Positions 42,320 through 57,866 of a stretch of 64,000 nucleotides of DNA are shown here, in pieces. Source of the DNA: Escherichia phage vB_EcoM_HZ_ZJUN4; sequence record PP216085; one strand, written 5' to 3'. Each line of letters opens with the position of its first letter. The first letter of the stretch is position 1. Made by a program: the position numbers and the translations under genes. The notes below the pieces were generated by a model. The model saw nothing but the letters and a program-made list of their open reading frames with translations. It was not told the origin of the DNA and made no database searches.

Positions 42320-43016
<697 letters not shown>

Positions 43017-43452: not shown

Positions 43453-43638
43453 ATGAAACGTTGTGAATTAATTCGAAATGTTGCTATTGCAATTTCTGCT
43501 TCTGCTTTTAGTTTTTCAATGTTTGTTGGATTTATATGTGGATTATTAACTACAGCAGAAAACGTTTTTTCACTTGTAGTAGCATTTTTAATTGGTTTAA
43601 TCGCTATTGTTATGGATAAAATTTCTAAAGGTGAATAG
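43453..43638 (+). CDS. small membrane protein (two predicted TM segments)
   Basis: 61-aa strongly hydrophobic ORF with its own early promoter. Confidence 0.5.
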   Translation: MKRCELIRNVAIAISASAFSFSMFVGFICGLLTTAENVFSLVVAFLIGLIAIVMDKISKGE

Positions 43639-43639
43639 A

Positions 43640-44017
43640 ATGTACAAAGTGTACGCGGATTATCAGGCTAATCCATCTAAAAAGCCAAGCTGTCAAATAG
43701 GATGGGCTCATGATACTTTGCTTGAAGCAGTAGATGCTGCTCAAAAATTGGGATATAAATATGTAGAGATTGTTCAACTTCCATCAGGAACAGTTATTAC
43801 TCTCGAAGAGTTTAATAATATTAAACCAAACTTTTTACTTTTTGCAGGTGATAATTATTATCCTCGTGGTGGATATGATGATTTGATTGCGTATGCTGAA
43901 ACAGAAGATGAATTACGCCAAATTATTGAAGACAATAAATCAAAACGATTTGGCGATAGTTTCGACTGGTGGCAAATCGTAAATGCCCATACACATACTA
44001 TTGTTGATAAAGGTTAA
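43640..44017 (+). CDS. hypothetical protein
   Basis: Start at ATG 43640 after the previous stop (track ORF 43607 overlaps the upstream gene); 125 aa. Confidence 0.5.
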   Translation: MYKVYADYQANPSKKPSCQIGWAHDTLLEAVDAAQKLGYKYVEIVQLPSGTVITLEEFNNIKPNFLLFAGDNYYPRGGYDDLIAYAETEDELRQIIEDNKSKRFGDSFDWWQIVNAHTHTIVDKG

Positions 44018-49551: not shown

Positions 49552-49895
49552 ATAAAGTCAAATATTCGCTTCCTGAGTCATTTTTAATTTTTGCTGTGGC
49601 GTTGGCTGCAGCTCTTGCGGGTAGTCTTTTTGGATTGTTAATTGACTGTCTTATTTTAAACATCGATGGCACAGTAAATATAATAGAAGTTTGGAGTGAA
49701 CTTCGCTATACTAAAATTATTTCATTATTTTCATTCTTTTGTATCATTCTATATTTTCATTATGATAATTTTAAAATAAATTGGCAAAGAAAAAAGGATT
49801 ACAAAATACAATTAAAAGAATATAATAGCTACATGTCTTATATTGAAAATGAATCAATGAAAGAGTTTGTGATTGATTGCAGGAAATTAAAATGA
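49533..49895 (+). CDS. small membrane protein
   Basis: 120 aa with two hydrophobic segments; overlaps neighbours. Confidence 0.5.
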   Translation: MQRPKLNKVKYSLPESFLIFAVALAAALAGSLFGLLIDCLILNIDGTVNIIEVWSELRYTKIISLFSFFCIILYFHYDNFKINWQRKKDYKIQLKEYNSYMSYIENESMKEFVIDCRKLK

Positions 49896-50332
49896 AAACA
49901 TTATCAGCTGGTATTATCTTTATGACAGAAGATAAAGATTTATTCATGGGACGGGTTACCGGTTCTCGTAAGTCTGGAATGATGGCCCATCGCTGGGATA
50001 TTCCAAAGGGCCGTGTAGAAAATTCTGATTTAAGCGCACTAGAGGCAGCACGAAGAGAGTGTTTAGAAGAGACTGGCTTTAGCAATTATAATCCAGACCT
50101 TCTAGAAGACCTAGGTGTATTTAAATATTCTAGTAATAAAGACTTACAGTTATTTTATTATACGATTCCAGTAGAGCATGAGATGTTTAGAAATTGCCAC
50201 TGCGAGTCTTATTTTGAAAATAAAGATGGCGTTATGATTCCAGAGATGGACGCTTTTGCTCTTATTCCTCGTACTCAGTGGCAATATGTGATGGGTCCTT
50301 CACTTTACCGAATAATGAACAACCTCTTTTAA
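49877..50332 (+). CDS. nudE: Nudix hydrolase NudE (e.1)
   Basis: 151 aa; Nudix box GRVENSDLSALEAARRECLEETGF; directly upstream of e in the window. Confidence 0.85.
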   Translation: MQEIKMKTLSAGIIFMTEDKDLFMGRVTGSRKSGMMAHRWDIPKGRVENSDLSALEAARRECLEETGFSNYNPDLLEDLGVFKYSSNKDLQLFYYTIPVEHEMFRNCHCESYFENKDGVMIPEMDAFALIPRTQWQYVMGPSLYRIMNNLF

Positions 50333-50863
<531 letters not shown>

Positions 50864-50867
50864 AGTT

Positions 50868-50897
50868 GTTTACTTTCTCCTAGAACTGTGATAGTAT
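50868..50897 (+). promoter_or_regulatory. T4-type early promoter
   Basis: GTTTAC, spacer, GTGATAGTAT. Confidence 0.55.
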
Positions 50898-50934
50898 ATT
50901 CATAGTTACTAATTAAAATATTTAAAGGAACCAT

Positions 50935-51252
50935 ATGAAAACGTTTAAAGAATTTATTGCAGAATCTGCCCAAGGACAACGTGTAGAAGGCGGTTATATC
51001 TGGATTGAACAAGTTGAGCCGCCAAGTCGCACTTCTACAGGTAAATGGAAAATCACTGTTGATGGTCCTGGTGGTAAACGTAGGACTCTTAAAGAAATTA
51101 ACGGGTACTATGAAGAAGCTCTTTCTGACGCGGGTACTTATATGATGCAAATCATGATTAAAAACCCAGAAAATCGTTTTGCGGCTAGAGTTTTCCGCCG
51201 TATTGGAAATAAGCTTTATGATGCATATTCTAAAAACTTCCCTAAAGAATAA
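50935..51252 (+). CDS. internal protein with CTS (IPII/IPIII-type)
   Basis: 105 aa; N-terminus MKTFKEFIAE; locus next to e as in T4. Confidence 0.7.
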   Translation: MKTFKEFIAESAQGQRVEGGYIWIEQVEPPSRTSTGKWKITVDGPGGKRRTLKEINGYYEEALSDAGTYMMQIMIKNPENRFAARVFRRIGNKLYDAYSKNFPKE

Positions 51253-51268
51253 AAATTAAAGGATACAC

Positions 51269-51742
51269 ATGAAAACATATCAAGAATTTATTACTGAAGC
51301 AGCTATTAATTCTCAAATTATTGCTGAATCTTTTACTGATCTTTTGAAATTTAAAAAAGGACAGAAAATCACTGCTGTATTGGATGATGGTACAGAAGTT
51401 GAGATGGATGTACAGGGATATAATTATGCAGTAGATGGAAAACTGTATAATAAATCTCATGCTAAATTTGATTCATTTGACGACTTTGTTAATACAGTTG
51501 AAGATGAAAAAACTCGTCGATCCATTGCAACTGGTGATGCTAAGGTTCTTATGGCACATGGTCATGAACGCATTCGCGCTAAACAGAATAAAATGGGTGA
51601 AGATAATTTTGCATTAGTTGGTTATCAATCTGGTAAGCAAACTTATGGCTATCAGCGTACTGCTACCATGTATAATAAAAATGGTAAAATCGCTTTCGTG
51701 AATAGTAAAGGTTCTATTCAGTACGTTAAATCGTTCAAATAA
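51269..51742 (+). CDS. internal protein with CTS (IPII/IPIII-type)
   Basis: 157 aa; N-terminus MKTYQEFITE; locus next to e as in T4. Confidence 0.7.
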   Translation: MKTYQEFITEAAINSQIIAESFTDLLKFKKGQKITAVLDDGTEVEMDVQGYNYAVDGKLYNKSHAKFDSFDDFVNTVEDEKTRRSIATGDAKVLMAHGHERIRAKQNKMGEDNFALVGYQSGKQTYGYQRTATMYNKNGKIAFVNSKGSIQYVKSFK

Positions 51743-51882
51743 TATGGGAACAACCTGGACCTCATGATTCTGTGAGGGATTCCCGCCAACCTGTAATAAG
51801 GTCGAGCCCAAGTGCGGTAATGGGTAAATACAGAAATGGACAATTCATGCGCCACGGAATGGCCCAAATTTAGAGAGAAGAA

Positions 51883-52422
51883 ATGAGAACATTTTTAACT
51901 GGTCCTTATCTATCCCTGATGAATGCTTTTACACACCATTCTGATGCTAGAGTAGAAGAAATTTGTAAAAACGAATATATCCCGCCATTTGAAGACTTAC
52001 TTAAACAGTACTGCACACTTCGACTAGATGGTGGACGTCAATCCGGTAAATCAACTGCAATAACTAATTTTGCCGCTAATTGGTTATATGATGGTGGAAC
52101 AGTTATTGTTCTTTCTAATACTTCAGCTTACGCTAAAATTTCTGCGGGCCACATTAAAAAAGAATTTTCTCGTTATTCTAGCGATGATATTCGATTCCGC
52201 TTATTTACCGATTCTGTCCGTAGTTTTATCGGTAATAAAGGAAGCAAGTTCAGAGGTTTATCGCTTTCGCGGATTTTGTATATAATCGATGAGCCTGTTA
52301 AATCTCCTGATATGGATAAGATTTATAGTGTCCATATTGACACTGTACACTGCTGCTGTAATATTAAATGTTGTATTGGTGGTATTACTCGTCCACAGTT
52401 TTTCGTAATCGGAATGCAATGA
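51883..52422 (+). CDS. small P-loop NTPase with Cys-rich C-terminus
   Basis: 179 aa; Walker A GGRQSGKST, Walker B-like ILYIIDEP, tail HCCCNIKCC. Confidence 0.5.
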   Translation: MRTFLTGPYLSLMNAFTHHSDARVEEICKNEYIPPFEDLLKQYCTLRLDGGRQSGKSTAITNFAANWLYDGGTVIVLSNTSAYAKISAGHIKKEFSRYSSDDIRFRLFTDSVRSFIGNKGSKFRGLSLSRILYIIDEPVKSPDMDKIYSVHIDTVHCCCNIKCCIGGITRPQFFVIGMQ

Positions 52423-53878: not shown

Positions 53879-53908
53879 GTTTACTTTTCCTCTTGACTGT
53901 GGTATAAT
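53879..53908 (+). promoter_or_regulatory. T4-type early promoter
   Basis: GTTTAC, spacer, TGTGGTATAAT. Confidence 0.6.
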
Positions 53909-54950: not shown

Positions 54951-55284
54951 AATTTTGGTTTTATGTGTAGGATTAATTTCATTTTCTGCGTTAGCAAATA
55001 CATCATACACTGAAATTAGAGAGTATGCAAACCGTACTGCCGCGGATTATTGTGGGAAAAATAAAGCATGCCAAGCTGAATTTGCACAGAAATTAATATA
55101 TGCATATAAAGACGGAGAAAGAGATAAATCAAGCAGATATAAAAATGATACTTTATTAAAACGATATGCTAAAAAGTGGAATACCTTAGAATGTTCAGTT
55201 GCGGAGGAGAAAGATAAAGCCGCTTGTCATTCAATGGTTGACCGTTTGGTAGATTCTTATAATCGAGGATTGAGTACTAGATGA
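54943..55284 (+). CDS. small secreted Cys-containing protein
   Basis: 113 aa; signal peptide MTKILVLCVGLISFSALA; four Cys in the mature part. Confidence 0.5.
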   Translation: MTKILVLCVGLISFSALANTSYTEIREYANRTAADYCGKNKACQAEFAQKLIYAYKDGERDKSSRYKNDTLLKRYAKKWNTLECSVAEEKDKAACHSMVDRLVDSYNRGLSTR

Positions 55285-55760
55285 TTGTAAAATATATCAA
55301 GGGCGATATTGTCGCCCTATTTCTTCAAGGTAATATTATTGCGCACGGATGCAACTGCTTCCACACAATGGGCTCTGGTGTAGCGGGTCAATTAGCAAGA
55401 GCCTATCCTAAAATTTTAGAAATAGATAAAACCACTACCGAATACGGTTCTCGTGATAAATTAGGCGATATGTCTATTGTTTTTAAGCATAGCCCTACGG
55501 GATTTGGTATATGCTATAACCTGTATACACAATACGAACCGGGTCCTAATCTTGATTATGGTGCTTTAGTAAATTGCATGATAGAATTAAATCTACAGGC
55601 AGAAACCCTTTTGTTTAAACCAGTAATTTACATTCCACGCATAGGTTGCGGTATTGCTGGAGGCGATTGGGATAAGGTTTCTAAATTAATCGACATGTTT
55701 ACTCCTGATATTGATTTAATAGTGGTGGATTATGAAAGTACATTACCCGCATCCGTTTGA
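55281..55760 (+). CDS. macro-domain-like protein (ADP-ribose binding/processing fold)
   Basis: 159 aa; GDIVALF...NIIAHGCNC...MGSGVAGQLA and IPRIGCGIAGGDW resemble macro-domain motifs. Confidence 0.55.
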   Translation: MIVKYIKGDIVALFLQGNIIAHGCNCFHTMGSGVAGQLARAYPKILEIDKTTTEYGSRDKLGDMSIVFKHSPTGFGICYNLYTQYEPGPNLDYGALVNCMIELNLQAETLLFKPVIYIPRIGCGIAGGDWDKVSKLIDMFTPDIDLIVVDYESTLPASV

Positions 55761-55944
55761 CCCTAAAAATAAAGCGGAAATTATTCGTCAATGGGAACGC
55801 ATTTGCCGTACTAAATGCCCAATTAATAGTCCACATGATGTAGATAAAGACTACATCGGAACATTCGTTGAATATACCTTTATTGATAAGAAAGGTCGTA
55901 AACAACATGTAGAAGAATATTGCTTAAAGGTTACATGGTTATGA
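55732..55944 (+). CDS. hypothetical small protein
   Basis: 70-aa ORF overlapping the end of the macro-domain gene. Confidence 0.4.
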   Translation: MKVHYPHPFDPKNKAEIIRQWERICRTKCPINSPHDVDKDYIGTFVEYTFIDKKGRKQHVEEYCLKVTWL

Positions 55945-56312: not shown

Positions 56313-56894
56313 ATGGCGAGTTTAATTTTTACTTATGCAGCAATGAATGCTGGAAAATCTGCTTCTCTTTTGACTGCTGCGCATAATTATAAAGAACGCG
56401 GAATGAGTGTATTAGTTCTTAAGCCTGCTATTGATACTCGCGATTCTGTTTGTGAAGTCGTTTCTCGCATTGGAATTAAGCAGGAAGCGAATATTATTAC
56501 GGATGATATGGATATTTTTGAGTTCTATAAATGGGCTGAAGCACAAAAAGATATTCATTGCGTATTTGTAGATGAAGCACAGTTTTTAAAAACTGAACAG
56601 GTGCATCAATTAAGCCGAATTGTCGATACATATAATGTTCCTGTTATGGCTTATGGTCTAAGGACTGATTTCGCTGGAAAATTATTTGAAGGTTCTAAGG
56701 AACTTTTGGCGATTGCAGATAAACTTATTGAACTGAAGGCAGTTTGTCATTGCGGTAAAAAAGCGATTATGACAGCTCGATTAATGGAAGATGGAACACC
56801 AGTTAAAGAAGGTAATCAAATCTGTATTGGTGATGAAATTTATGTTTCTTTGTGTAGAAAACATTGGAATGAATTAACTAAAAAGCTTGGTTAG
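56313..56894 (+). CDS. tk: thymidine kinase
   Basis: 193 aa as in T4 Tk; P-loop AAMNAGKSASLL; C-terminal Cys/His cluster. Confidence 0.9.
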   Translation: MASLIFTYAAMNAGKSASLLTAAHNYKERGMSVLVLKPAIDTRDSVCEVVSRIGIKQEANIITDDMDIFEFYKWAEAQKDIHCVFVDEAQFLKTEQVHQLSRIVDTYNVPVMAYGLRTDFAGKLFEGSKELLAIADKLIELKAVCHCGKKAIMTARLMEDGTPVKEGNQICIGDEIYVSLCRKHWNELTKKLG

Positions 56895-57838: not shown

Positions 57839-57843
57839 CATTA

Positions 57844-57866
57844 GTCTCCTTCGGGAGACTTTTTTC
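57844..57866 (+). terminator. intrinsic terminator
   Basis: GTCTCC-TTCG-GGAGAC then TTTTTT. Confidence 0.75.

Follow-up and report, generated by a model that had tools for sequence, protein, structure and literature searches.

The protein encoded by the open reading frame between vs and tk.3 in the DNA of Escherichia phage vB_EcoM_HZ_ZJUN4 (PP216085; the whole analysed stretch of 64,000 nucleotides is referred to here as the window) is a stand-alone macrodomain protein and the positional orthologue of T4 Tk.4, which has recently been named AdfM. Comparative analysis suggests that it probably acts by hydrolytic removal of the ADP-ribose that DarT2 installs on thymidines in phage single-stranded DNA, through a Gln/Asn-assisted, water-mediated chemistry like that of Streptomyces SCO6735. 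The gene is, then, the already known tk.4 (adfM), and its presence is explained without new biology.

The reading frame put forward in the preliminary description was found as claimed, with an ATG at 55281 and a stop codon ending at 55760 on the plus strand, and the three motifs quoted from it (GDIVALF, IIAHGCNCFHTMGSGVAGQLA and IPRIGCGIAGGDW) are all present, letter for letter, in the translated product, which has an acidic calculated pI of 5.0. The ATG of tk.4 overlaps the stop codon of vs (ATGA), and a Shine–Dalgarno-like sequence is found just upstream (Table 1). At the other end, the final 29 nt of the ORF overlap tk.3, compared with an overlap of 4 nt in T4, and tk (56313..56894) begins 553 nt past the end of the tk.4 ORF. 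The gene is part of a co-directional block, regB-vs.1-vs-tk.4-tk.3-tk.2-tk.1-tk-rI.1-rI-rI.-1. The best sigma-70-like match upstream of regB is, by its resemblance to the consensus, a candidate start of the regB...rI.-1 transcription block; promoter-like sites in the region are fewer than expected from shuffled sequence, so the promoter scan is uninformative. The hairpin with a T-run located after rI.-1, whose counterpart position in phage vB_EcoM_OE5505 carries an annotated terminator, is likely the end of the tk.4 transcription unit.

Table 1. Positions of tk.4, of its predicted expression signals and active-site motifs, and of the allelic cassette in the window.
Feature	Position	Strand	Remarks
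Sigma-70-like promoter match, best one upstream of regB	53880..53908	+	10/12, extended -10 TG; consensus only
Shine–Dalgarno-like GAGGA	55265..55269	+	11 nt before the tk.4 ATG; read from sequence, putative function
tk.4 (adfM) CDS	55281..55760	+	159 aa, stand-alone macrodomain protein; span includes the stop codon
Allelic cassette	55319..55767		DNA identity to T4 of 26–83% per 30-nt block (pairwise alignment)
HGCNC codons H22-G23-C24-N25-C26	55344..55358	+	H22 aligns with SCO6735 H24 and N25 with N27 (direct alignment to 5e3b)
NxYTQ codons N80-L81-Y82-T83-Q84	55518..55532	+	Q84 stands where TARG1 (K84) and DarG (K80) have the catalytic Lys; aligns with SCO6735 Q85
Codons P119-W130 (PRIGCGIAGGDW), glycine-rich, predicted phosphate-binding loop	55635..55670	+	G124 aligns with SCO6735 G128; A126 at the position of TARG1 D125
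Intrinsic-terminator-like hairpin, then T-run	57843..57860	+	After rI.-1; corresponding site of OE5505 has an annotated terminator

The window derives from a Tequatrovirus, and around tk.4 its DNA reaches 98.9% identity with several T4-like phages of Escherichia and Salmonella. In vB_EcoM_OE5505, gp117 has exactly the sequence of the window protein (100% identity), and all nine nucleotide differences between the two copies of the gene are synonymous third-position changes, which indicates that the gene is under purifying selection. T4 Tk.4 (NP_049723) and the window protein share 58% identity over 155 of 155 aligned residues, with no gaps (E-value, 1e-70). The ORF is located between vs and tk.3 in an order, regB, vs.1, vs, ORF, tk.3, tk.2, tk.1, tk, rI.1, rI, rI.-1, that T4 shares, which makes it the positional orthologue of tk.4. 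Apart from the locus, the two proteins have in common the PHROG assignment and the invariant H22, N25, Q84 and glycine-loop residues. They differ in length (155 aa in T4, and four extra C-terminal residues here) and in 42% of residues, mostly in residues 48–79 and 96–159; the phosphate-binding loop reads GIAGGDW, the family consensus, in the window protein and GIGKGNW, a rare form, in T4 Tk.4. Relatives are encoded in more than 2,700 phage records, where they are labelled 'phosphatase', 'macro domain protein' or 'Poa1p_like'. The T4 GenBank record annotates tk.4 as 'contains A1pp phosphatase motif'; the preliminary description made no link to T4 tk.4.

The evidence for the function of T4 Tk.4 is genetic. 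In HIDEN-SEQ, reported in a November 2025 preprint, tk.4 alone was significantly depleted when a T4 transposon library was grown on a host expressing DarTG2, and T4 with a clean deletion of tk.4 became sensitive to DarTG2 (10.1101/2025.11.20.689424). The authors of that study introduced the name adfM (anti-DarT factor Macrodomain), and proposed that its product removes ADP-ribose from DNA (10.1101/2025.11.20.689424). The finding closed a gap left by a 2024 study, in which T-even phages lacking AdfA and AdfN were noted to withstand DarTG2 nonetheless, through a factor then unidentified (10.1101/2024.07.11.602962). The counter-defences of T-even phages against DarTG now include AdfA (61.2), AdfN (30.3) and AdfM (tk.4). 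The suggestion of the preliminary description that the protein could reverse ADP-ribosylation, with relevance to bacterial immunity, agrees with this requirement for tk.4/AdfM in T4 (10.1101/2025.11.20.689424); the anti-DarTG2 phenotype is known from the T4 allele only.

Sequence and structure comparisons concur on the fold. The resemblance to macro domains, noticed earlier from sequence motifs, far exceeds chance and was borne out by profile searches, which returned a macro domain and no unrelated fold. The Pfam Macro profile (PF01661) was matched at positions 2–117 of 118 with a score of 32 bits (gathering score, 22; E-value, 1.3e-7), and PHROG 335, labelled 'phosphatase', was matched with an E-value of 1e-71. 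Both available DarG models were matched in their macro part: NCBIfam NF048014 at positions 2–142 of 338 (27.7 bits compared with a cut-off of 250), and the PADLOC model at positions 3–144 of 329. Sequence searches of the PDB likewise returned macrodomains, the best with an E-value of 4e-10 from the single sequence, and the closest solved structures were those of Bacteroides BT1257, yeast Poa1p, SCO6735, the Mycobacterium tuberculosis DarG macrodomain and human TARG1. With a 23-sequence family profile, these five matches improved to E-values between 4e-18 and 3e-11. The AlphaFold2 model, for which the alignment behind the same profile served as input, has a pLDDT of 92.3 and a pTM of 0.87. All of the 50 Foldseek PDB matches listed for it are macrodomains or designs on a macrodomain scaffold (probability, 1.00), with TARG1 at the top (E-value, 4e-10; TM, 0.73–0.83), together with BT1257 and Poa1p; the DarG macrodomains of M. 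tuberculosis and T. aquaticus follow at 5e-8 (TM, about 0.74), and the viral MacroD-type macrodomains rank below all of these. The assignment of the predicted three-layer alpha/beta/alpha fold to a true macro domain is secure, and, as judged from the sequence matches and the model, the subclass is that of the TARG1/DarG-like (ALC1-like) macrodomains.

Conservation was examined in an alignment of 118 homologues that are 38–100% identical to the window protein. All 118 share twelve residues (H22, G23, N25, C26, G33, A35, D49, N80, Y82, Q84, P119 and W130), and two glycines, G122 and G124, are each present in 117. In the profile alignment with TARG1, the catalytic K84 and D125 correspond to Q84 and A126, and direct alignment with SCO6735 pairs H24, N27, Q85 and G128 of the latter with H22, N25, Q84 and G124. 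For the display of the SCO6735 alignment, a chimeric query was used, consisting of window residues 1–112 and the C-terminal segment of SCO6735, and the anchoring in that display is artificial. According to the literature, SCO6735 is devoid of the catalytic Lys found at the equivalent positions of DarG (K80) and TARG1 (K84), and N27 is the Asn that locks its catalytic-site Gln (PMC9411070). The Q85A/E substitutions abolish hydrolysis of dT-ADPr DNA; the loss is nearly complete with N27S and substantial to nearly complete with G128E (PMC9411070). Because Q84 and N25 align with Q85 and N27 of SCO6735, and both are invariant in the 118 homologues, the window protein is assigned from sequence to the Gln-type enzymes, with an active site that is predicted to be SCO6735-like rather than DarG-like. 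The same assignment applies to T4 Tk.4, in which the motif reads NLYTQF.

SCO6735 (PDB 5e3b) is, like the window protein, a stand-alone TARG1/ALC1-like macrodomain that is not encoded beside DarT, and both have Gln in place of the catalytic Lys, the partner Asn, the His, the loop Gly and a loop of the form PRIGCGLAGG(T/D)W. The sequence match between the two is weak (E-value, 8.5e-8), and the lysines that position DNA in SCO6735 have no counterpart here: K34 corresponds to S32, and K89 lies in a five-residue insertion that is missing from the window protein. SCO6735 is furthermore the product of a bacterial gene induced by DNA damage, whereas tk.4 is a phage gene. BT1257 (2afc/2fg1), the best match by sequence, shares with the window protein the Gln and a PRIGCGLAGGKW loop. 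TARG1/OARD1 (4j5r) is the best match by structure, and its K84/D125 dyad is replaced by Q84/A126.

The DarG macrodomains (M. tuberculosis 5m3i and T. aquaticus 5m31) have the fold and the conserved Asn in common with the window protein, and the substrate, thymidine-ADPr in single-stranded DNA, is presumably shared. In the window protein, Lys80 of T. aquaticus DarG is replaced by Gln, the C-terminal DarT-binding domain is missing (full-length DarG comprises about 330–360 aa, compared with 159 aa here), and no darT lies adjacent to the gene. Membership of the DarG family was considered and rejected on these grounds, namely the missing catalytic Lys, C-terminal domain and darT neighbour (vs and tk.3 are found instead), together with a model score that falls well short of the cut-off. 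Gp104 of phage PhiKZ, for which the name AdfM was given independently, has been shown biochemically to remove the ADP-ribose added by DarT2 to DNA (Cell Rep 2026, PMC13309987). Both gp104 and T-even AdfM are stand-alone macrodomains of phages and counter DarTG2, but the two are distant (hhalign, 23% identity; probability, 95.5%), and gp104 contains the DarG-type motif FPTKDNWR with the catalytic Lys. The hhalign alignment is weak near the catalytic position, where it appears to be shifted by one residue, and was used for distant relatedness only. With gp104 being Lys-type and T-even AdfM being Gln-type, two lineages with different catalytic residues go under one name.

Bacterial relatives were collected at 76 loci (one genome per species), mainly from Rhodobacterales, Hyphomicrobiaceae, Nitrospirales and Clostridia, and the 28 loci examined encode mostly stand-alone ORFs of about 150–170 aa. 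In a small sample of ten scanned neighbours, no DarT was found beside the homologues, and all of the neighbours are housekeeping genes; they include ileS (IleRS) and lspA (LspA) on the two sides of the homologue in a Hyphomicrobiaceae metagenome-assembled genome, rpoC (RpoC) upstream in Ruegeria, a methylmalonyl-CoA mutase fusion, and EamA. These surroundings speak against the view that the lineage consists of DarG antitoxins that became detached.

The following sequence of events would best account for the observed fold, orthology, synteny, residue equivalences and purifying selection. The small stand-alone enzyme Tk.4 would be made from the regB-tk early-region transcription unit. In the infected cell, DarT2 of the host would ADP-ribosylate thymidines in single-stranded phage DNA, and replication would stall. 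The macrodomain pocket of Tk.4, composed of the HGCNC loop and the phosphate-binding loop PRIGCGIAGGDW, would bind the ADP-ribose, and the bond between thymine N3 and ribose C1'' would be hydrolysed, with the release of free ADP-ribose and intact DNA. As there is no catalytic lysine, Q84, held by N25, would hold the distal ribose in place while the cleavage is mediated by water. Tk.4 may in addition bind and inhibit DarT2 directly, as reported for SCO6735. SCO6735 itself removes thymidine-linked ADP-ribose from DNA and protects against DarT toxicity (PMC9411070), and we infer the same role as that of T4 Tk.4 and SCO6735 for the window allele. Certain features count against this explanation: the identity to the T4 protein with the known phenotype is only 58%, S32 replaces K34, the insertion with K89 is missing, and the low pI is unexpected in a DNA-binding enzyme.

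The substrate is the point on which the most serious of the alternatives turns. SCO6735-type enzymes act, besides, on Glu-linked ADP-ribose in protein (SCO6735 on auto-modified PARP1) and on uracil-ADPr in RNA; DNA-thymidine may accordingly be one substrate among others. It is conceivable, albeit unlikely, that the main substrates of Tk.4 are ADP-ribosylated proteins or RNA, such as those carrying the marks of phage Alt, ModA and ModB or those modified by host RNA- or protein-targeting ART toxins, and that the effect on DarT2 is a side activity. TARG1, the best structural match, is a protein Glu-ADPr hydrolase, and the acidic pI and the missing DNA-positioning lysines of SCO6735 would also fit a non-DNA substrate. 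However, the window protein has Q84 and A126 in place of the Lys84/Asp125 dyad with which TARG1 acts on protein substrates, nothing seen here links it to Alt or Mod, and sensitivity to DarTG2 is the sole phenotype reported for the orthologue, tk.4 being otherwise non-essential. The annotations point in another direction, towards a Poa1p-type phosphatase of ADP-ribose-1''-phosphate (Appr1p), in which case the gene would serve nucleotide-metabolite housekeeping and not anti-defence. We consider this very unlikely, even though T4 and many other records, as well as PHROG 335, carry the phosphatase label, Poa1p is among the closest solved relatives both by sequence (1.6e-09) and by fold, and the invariant H22 pairs with H23 of Poa1p, which carries a mutation in deposited structures. 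That label is inherited by homology, and T29, at the position of Poa1p S30 (which was also mutated in deposited structures), varies within the family among T, L, V, Q, S and M. Furthermore, the phenotype of the T4 knock-out concerns DarTG2 specifically. No pathway that makes Appr1p is known in T4, since the tRNA repair by T4 Rnl1/Pnkp leaves no 2'-phosphate.

Protection might also be mainly non-catalytic, with DarT2 bound and inhibited directly and the macrodomain pocket acting as a decoy. Catalytically dead SCO6735 Q85A does inhibit DarT in vitro, and more so than DarG K80A or TARG1 K84A (PMC9411070), and yet we give this explanation only a slight chance, a little below that of the phosphatase. 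The DarT-binding domain at the C-terminus of DarG is missing from the window protein, whose 159 aa correspond to the macro part only of profiles of about 330–340 positions. N25 and Q84 are invariant in the 118 homologues, including the bacterial stand-alone copies without an adjacent DarT, which argues for an enzymatic function over non-catalytic binding of DarT2. Least probable of all, and hardly to be expected, is the second option of the preliminary description, namely that the protein destroys or sequesters ADP-ribose-derived immune signals such as the gcADPR or His-ADPR of Thoeris. Macro domains do bind ADP-ribose moieties, and the phage carries another signal-degrading enzyme, Acb1 (57B), elsewhere in the window. 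This gene had been placed 3 kb from the macrodomain gene, but tblastn with T4 proteins located the homologue of T4 57B (99% identical) at 42558..43013, 12.3 kb upstream, within the block ipI-57B-57A-1. Neither the ORF lists nor tblastn revealed a 57B homologue within 3 kb on either side of tk.4, where vs.8, vs.7, vs.6, vs.4, vs.3, regB, vs.1, vs, tk.3-tk.1, tk, rI.1, rI, rI.-1 and ORFs of the mobD region are found. As the Acb1 gene belongs to another gene block, about 12 kb away, linkage does not argue for signal degradation. We found no report in the literature consulted of cleavage of cyclic ADPR isomers by a macrodomain of this class, and the T4 screen tied tk.4 to DarTG2 only (10.1101/2025.11.20.689424); this option is without support.

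Comparison with T4 revealed an exchange of alleles at this locus, where the region has its one strongly divergent stretch. The DNA flanking tk.4 is mostly about 90–100% identical to T4, with a few lower blocks; identity of about 90–100% holds up to 55318, drops from 55319, and recovers after about 55767. The replaced segment thus extends from codon 13 of tk.4 to its end and includes the first few codons of tk.3. At the protein level, the products of regB, vs.1, vs, tk.3, tk.2, tk.1, tk, rI.1 and rI are 85–100% identical to those of T4, compared with 58% for Tk.4, from which it follows that only tk.4 has been exchanged for another allele. The core of the cassette is present in 331 phage records at 78–98.5% DNA identity, including those of RB6 and BASEL phages, and the corresponding protein of JS98 is 93% identical to that of the window. 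As 692 records match the region including the flanks, both allele classes of tk.4 are common.

Two of these results, both modest, go beyond the literature consulted. About half of the related phage records contain a second tk.4 allele, in the form of a precise one-gene cassette, and the active site of T-even AdfM is predicted to be Gln-type, as in SCO6735, and not Lys-type, as in DarG or the PhiKZ namesake; mechanistic statements borrowed from DarG may consequently be wrong for the T-even protein. A further and doubtful proposal is that the window/JS98/RB6-type and T4/T6-type alleles of tk.4, with their 58% identity, are functionally non-equivalent, the two being adapted to distinct DarT2 variants or distinct ADP-ribosylated substrates (thymidine-ADPr in DNA or uracil-ADPr in RNA). 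Were this so, tk.4 would be a diversifying counter-defence hotspot. Part of the same doubtful proposal is that T-even phages recruited a Gln-type housekeeping macrodomain of bacteria as their AdfM independently, apart from the Lys-type, DarG-like AdfM of PhiKZ.

Comparison with T4 revealed that tk.4, the macrodomain gene of the window, is not the only variable gene in this stretch. The homologue of trna.3 is another allelic cassette that, like the one at tk.4, spans a single gene; the adjacent trna.2, trna.4 and ipI are 98–100% identical to those of T4. The ipII/ipIII slot, which is occupied by two different small proteins, is a variable internal-protein region of the typical sort. A tblastn search of the whole window yielded no matches to T4 denV, e.2, e.7 or segB. 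In the vs.8 homologue, codon 34, as counted from the T4 start, is an in-frame stop, and the ORF found in the window starts at 51883; its 179-aa product carries a Walker-A-like motif (GGRQSGKST). Either vs.8 is truncated in this phage or the start annotated in T4 is over-extended.

Features of the window compared with T4
Feature	Coordinates	Strand	Remarks
Acb1 (T4 57B) homologue	42558..43013	+	99% identity to T4
trna.3 homologue	43625..44014	+	51% identity to T4
nudE homologue	49877..50329	+	97% identity; 5 kb upstream of tk.4
ipII/ipIII slot, variable region	50863..51772		two different small proteins
Small protein 1 in the slot	50935..51252		
Small protein 2 in the slot	51269..51742		only 33% identity to ipII
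vs.8 homologue	51772..52422	+	93% identity to T4 over 219 aa
GC-rich hairpin AGGGCGAUAUUGUCGCCCU	55300..55318	+	within tk.4 codons 7–13

The hairpin located inside tk.4 is stable (free energy, -12.9 kcal/mol; z = -3.8 relative to shuffled sequences), is followed by a U-rich stretch, and ends at the exact point (55319) where DNA identity to T4 drops away. It could mark the boundary of a recombination event or serve in regulation, or it may be coincidental.

The Acb1 homologue, placed 3 kb from tk.4 in the preliminary description, is in fact found 12.3 kb upstream of it, within the ipI-57B-57A-1 block. The nudE product is annotated in T4 as a Nudix hydrolase with ADP-ribose among its substrates, and it could, speculatively, clear away the ADP-ribose that Tk.4 would set free.

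In bacteria, genes of the Tk.4-like Gln-type family were found in housekeeping gene surroundings: in locus L007 the gene order is ileS-macro-lspA, and in Ruegeria (L011) the gene lies immediately downstream of rpoC. Two further loci (L012 and L021) match the layout of L007, a likeness seen from ORF sizes alone; these three loci originate from Hyphomicrobiaceae and an uncultured alphaproteobacterium. DarT, an ADP-ribosylating toxin, was absent among the scanned neighbours of the bacterial Tk.4-like genes.

The name AdfM has been given independently to T4 Tk.4 (10.1101/2025.11.20.689424) and to PhiKZ gp104 (PMC13309987). T4 Tk.4 is a Gln-type, SCO6735-like protein with an NLYTQ motif (55518..55532 in the window), whereas PhiKZ gp104 is Lys-type and DarG-like, with an FPTKDNWR motif, and the identity between the Tk.4-type proteins and gp104 is only ~23% in the hhalign match. 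The two proteins are probably of independent origin, and their shared name masks differing catalytic residues.
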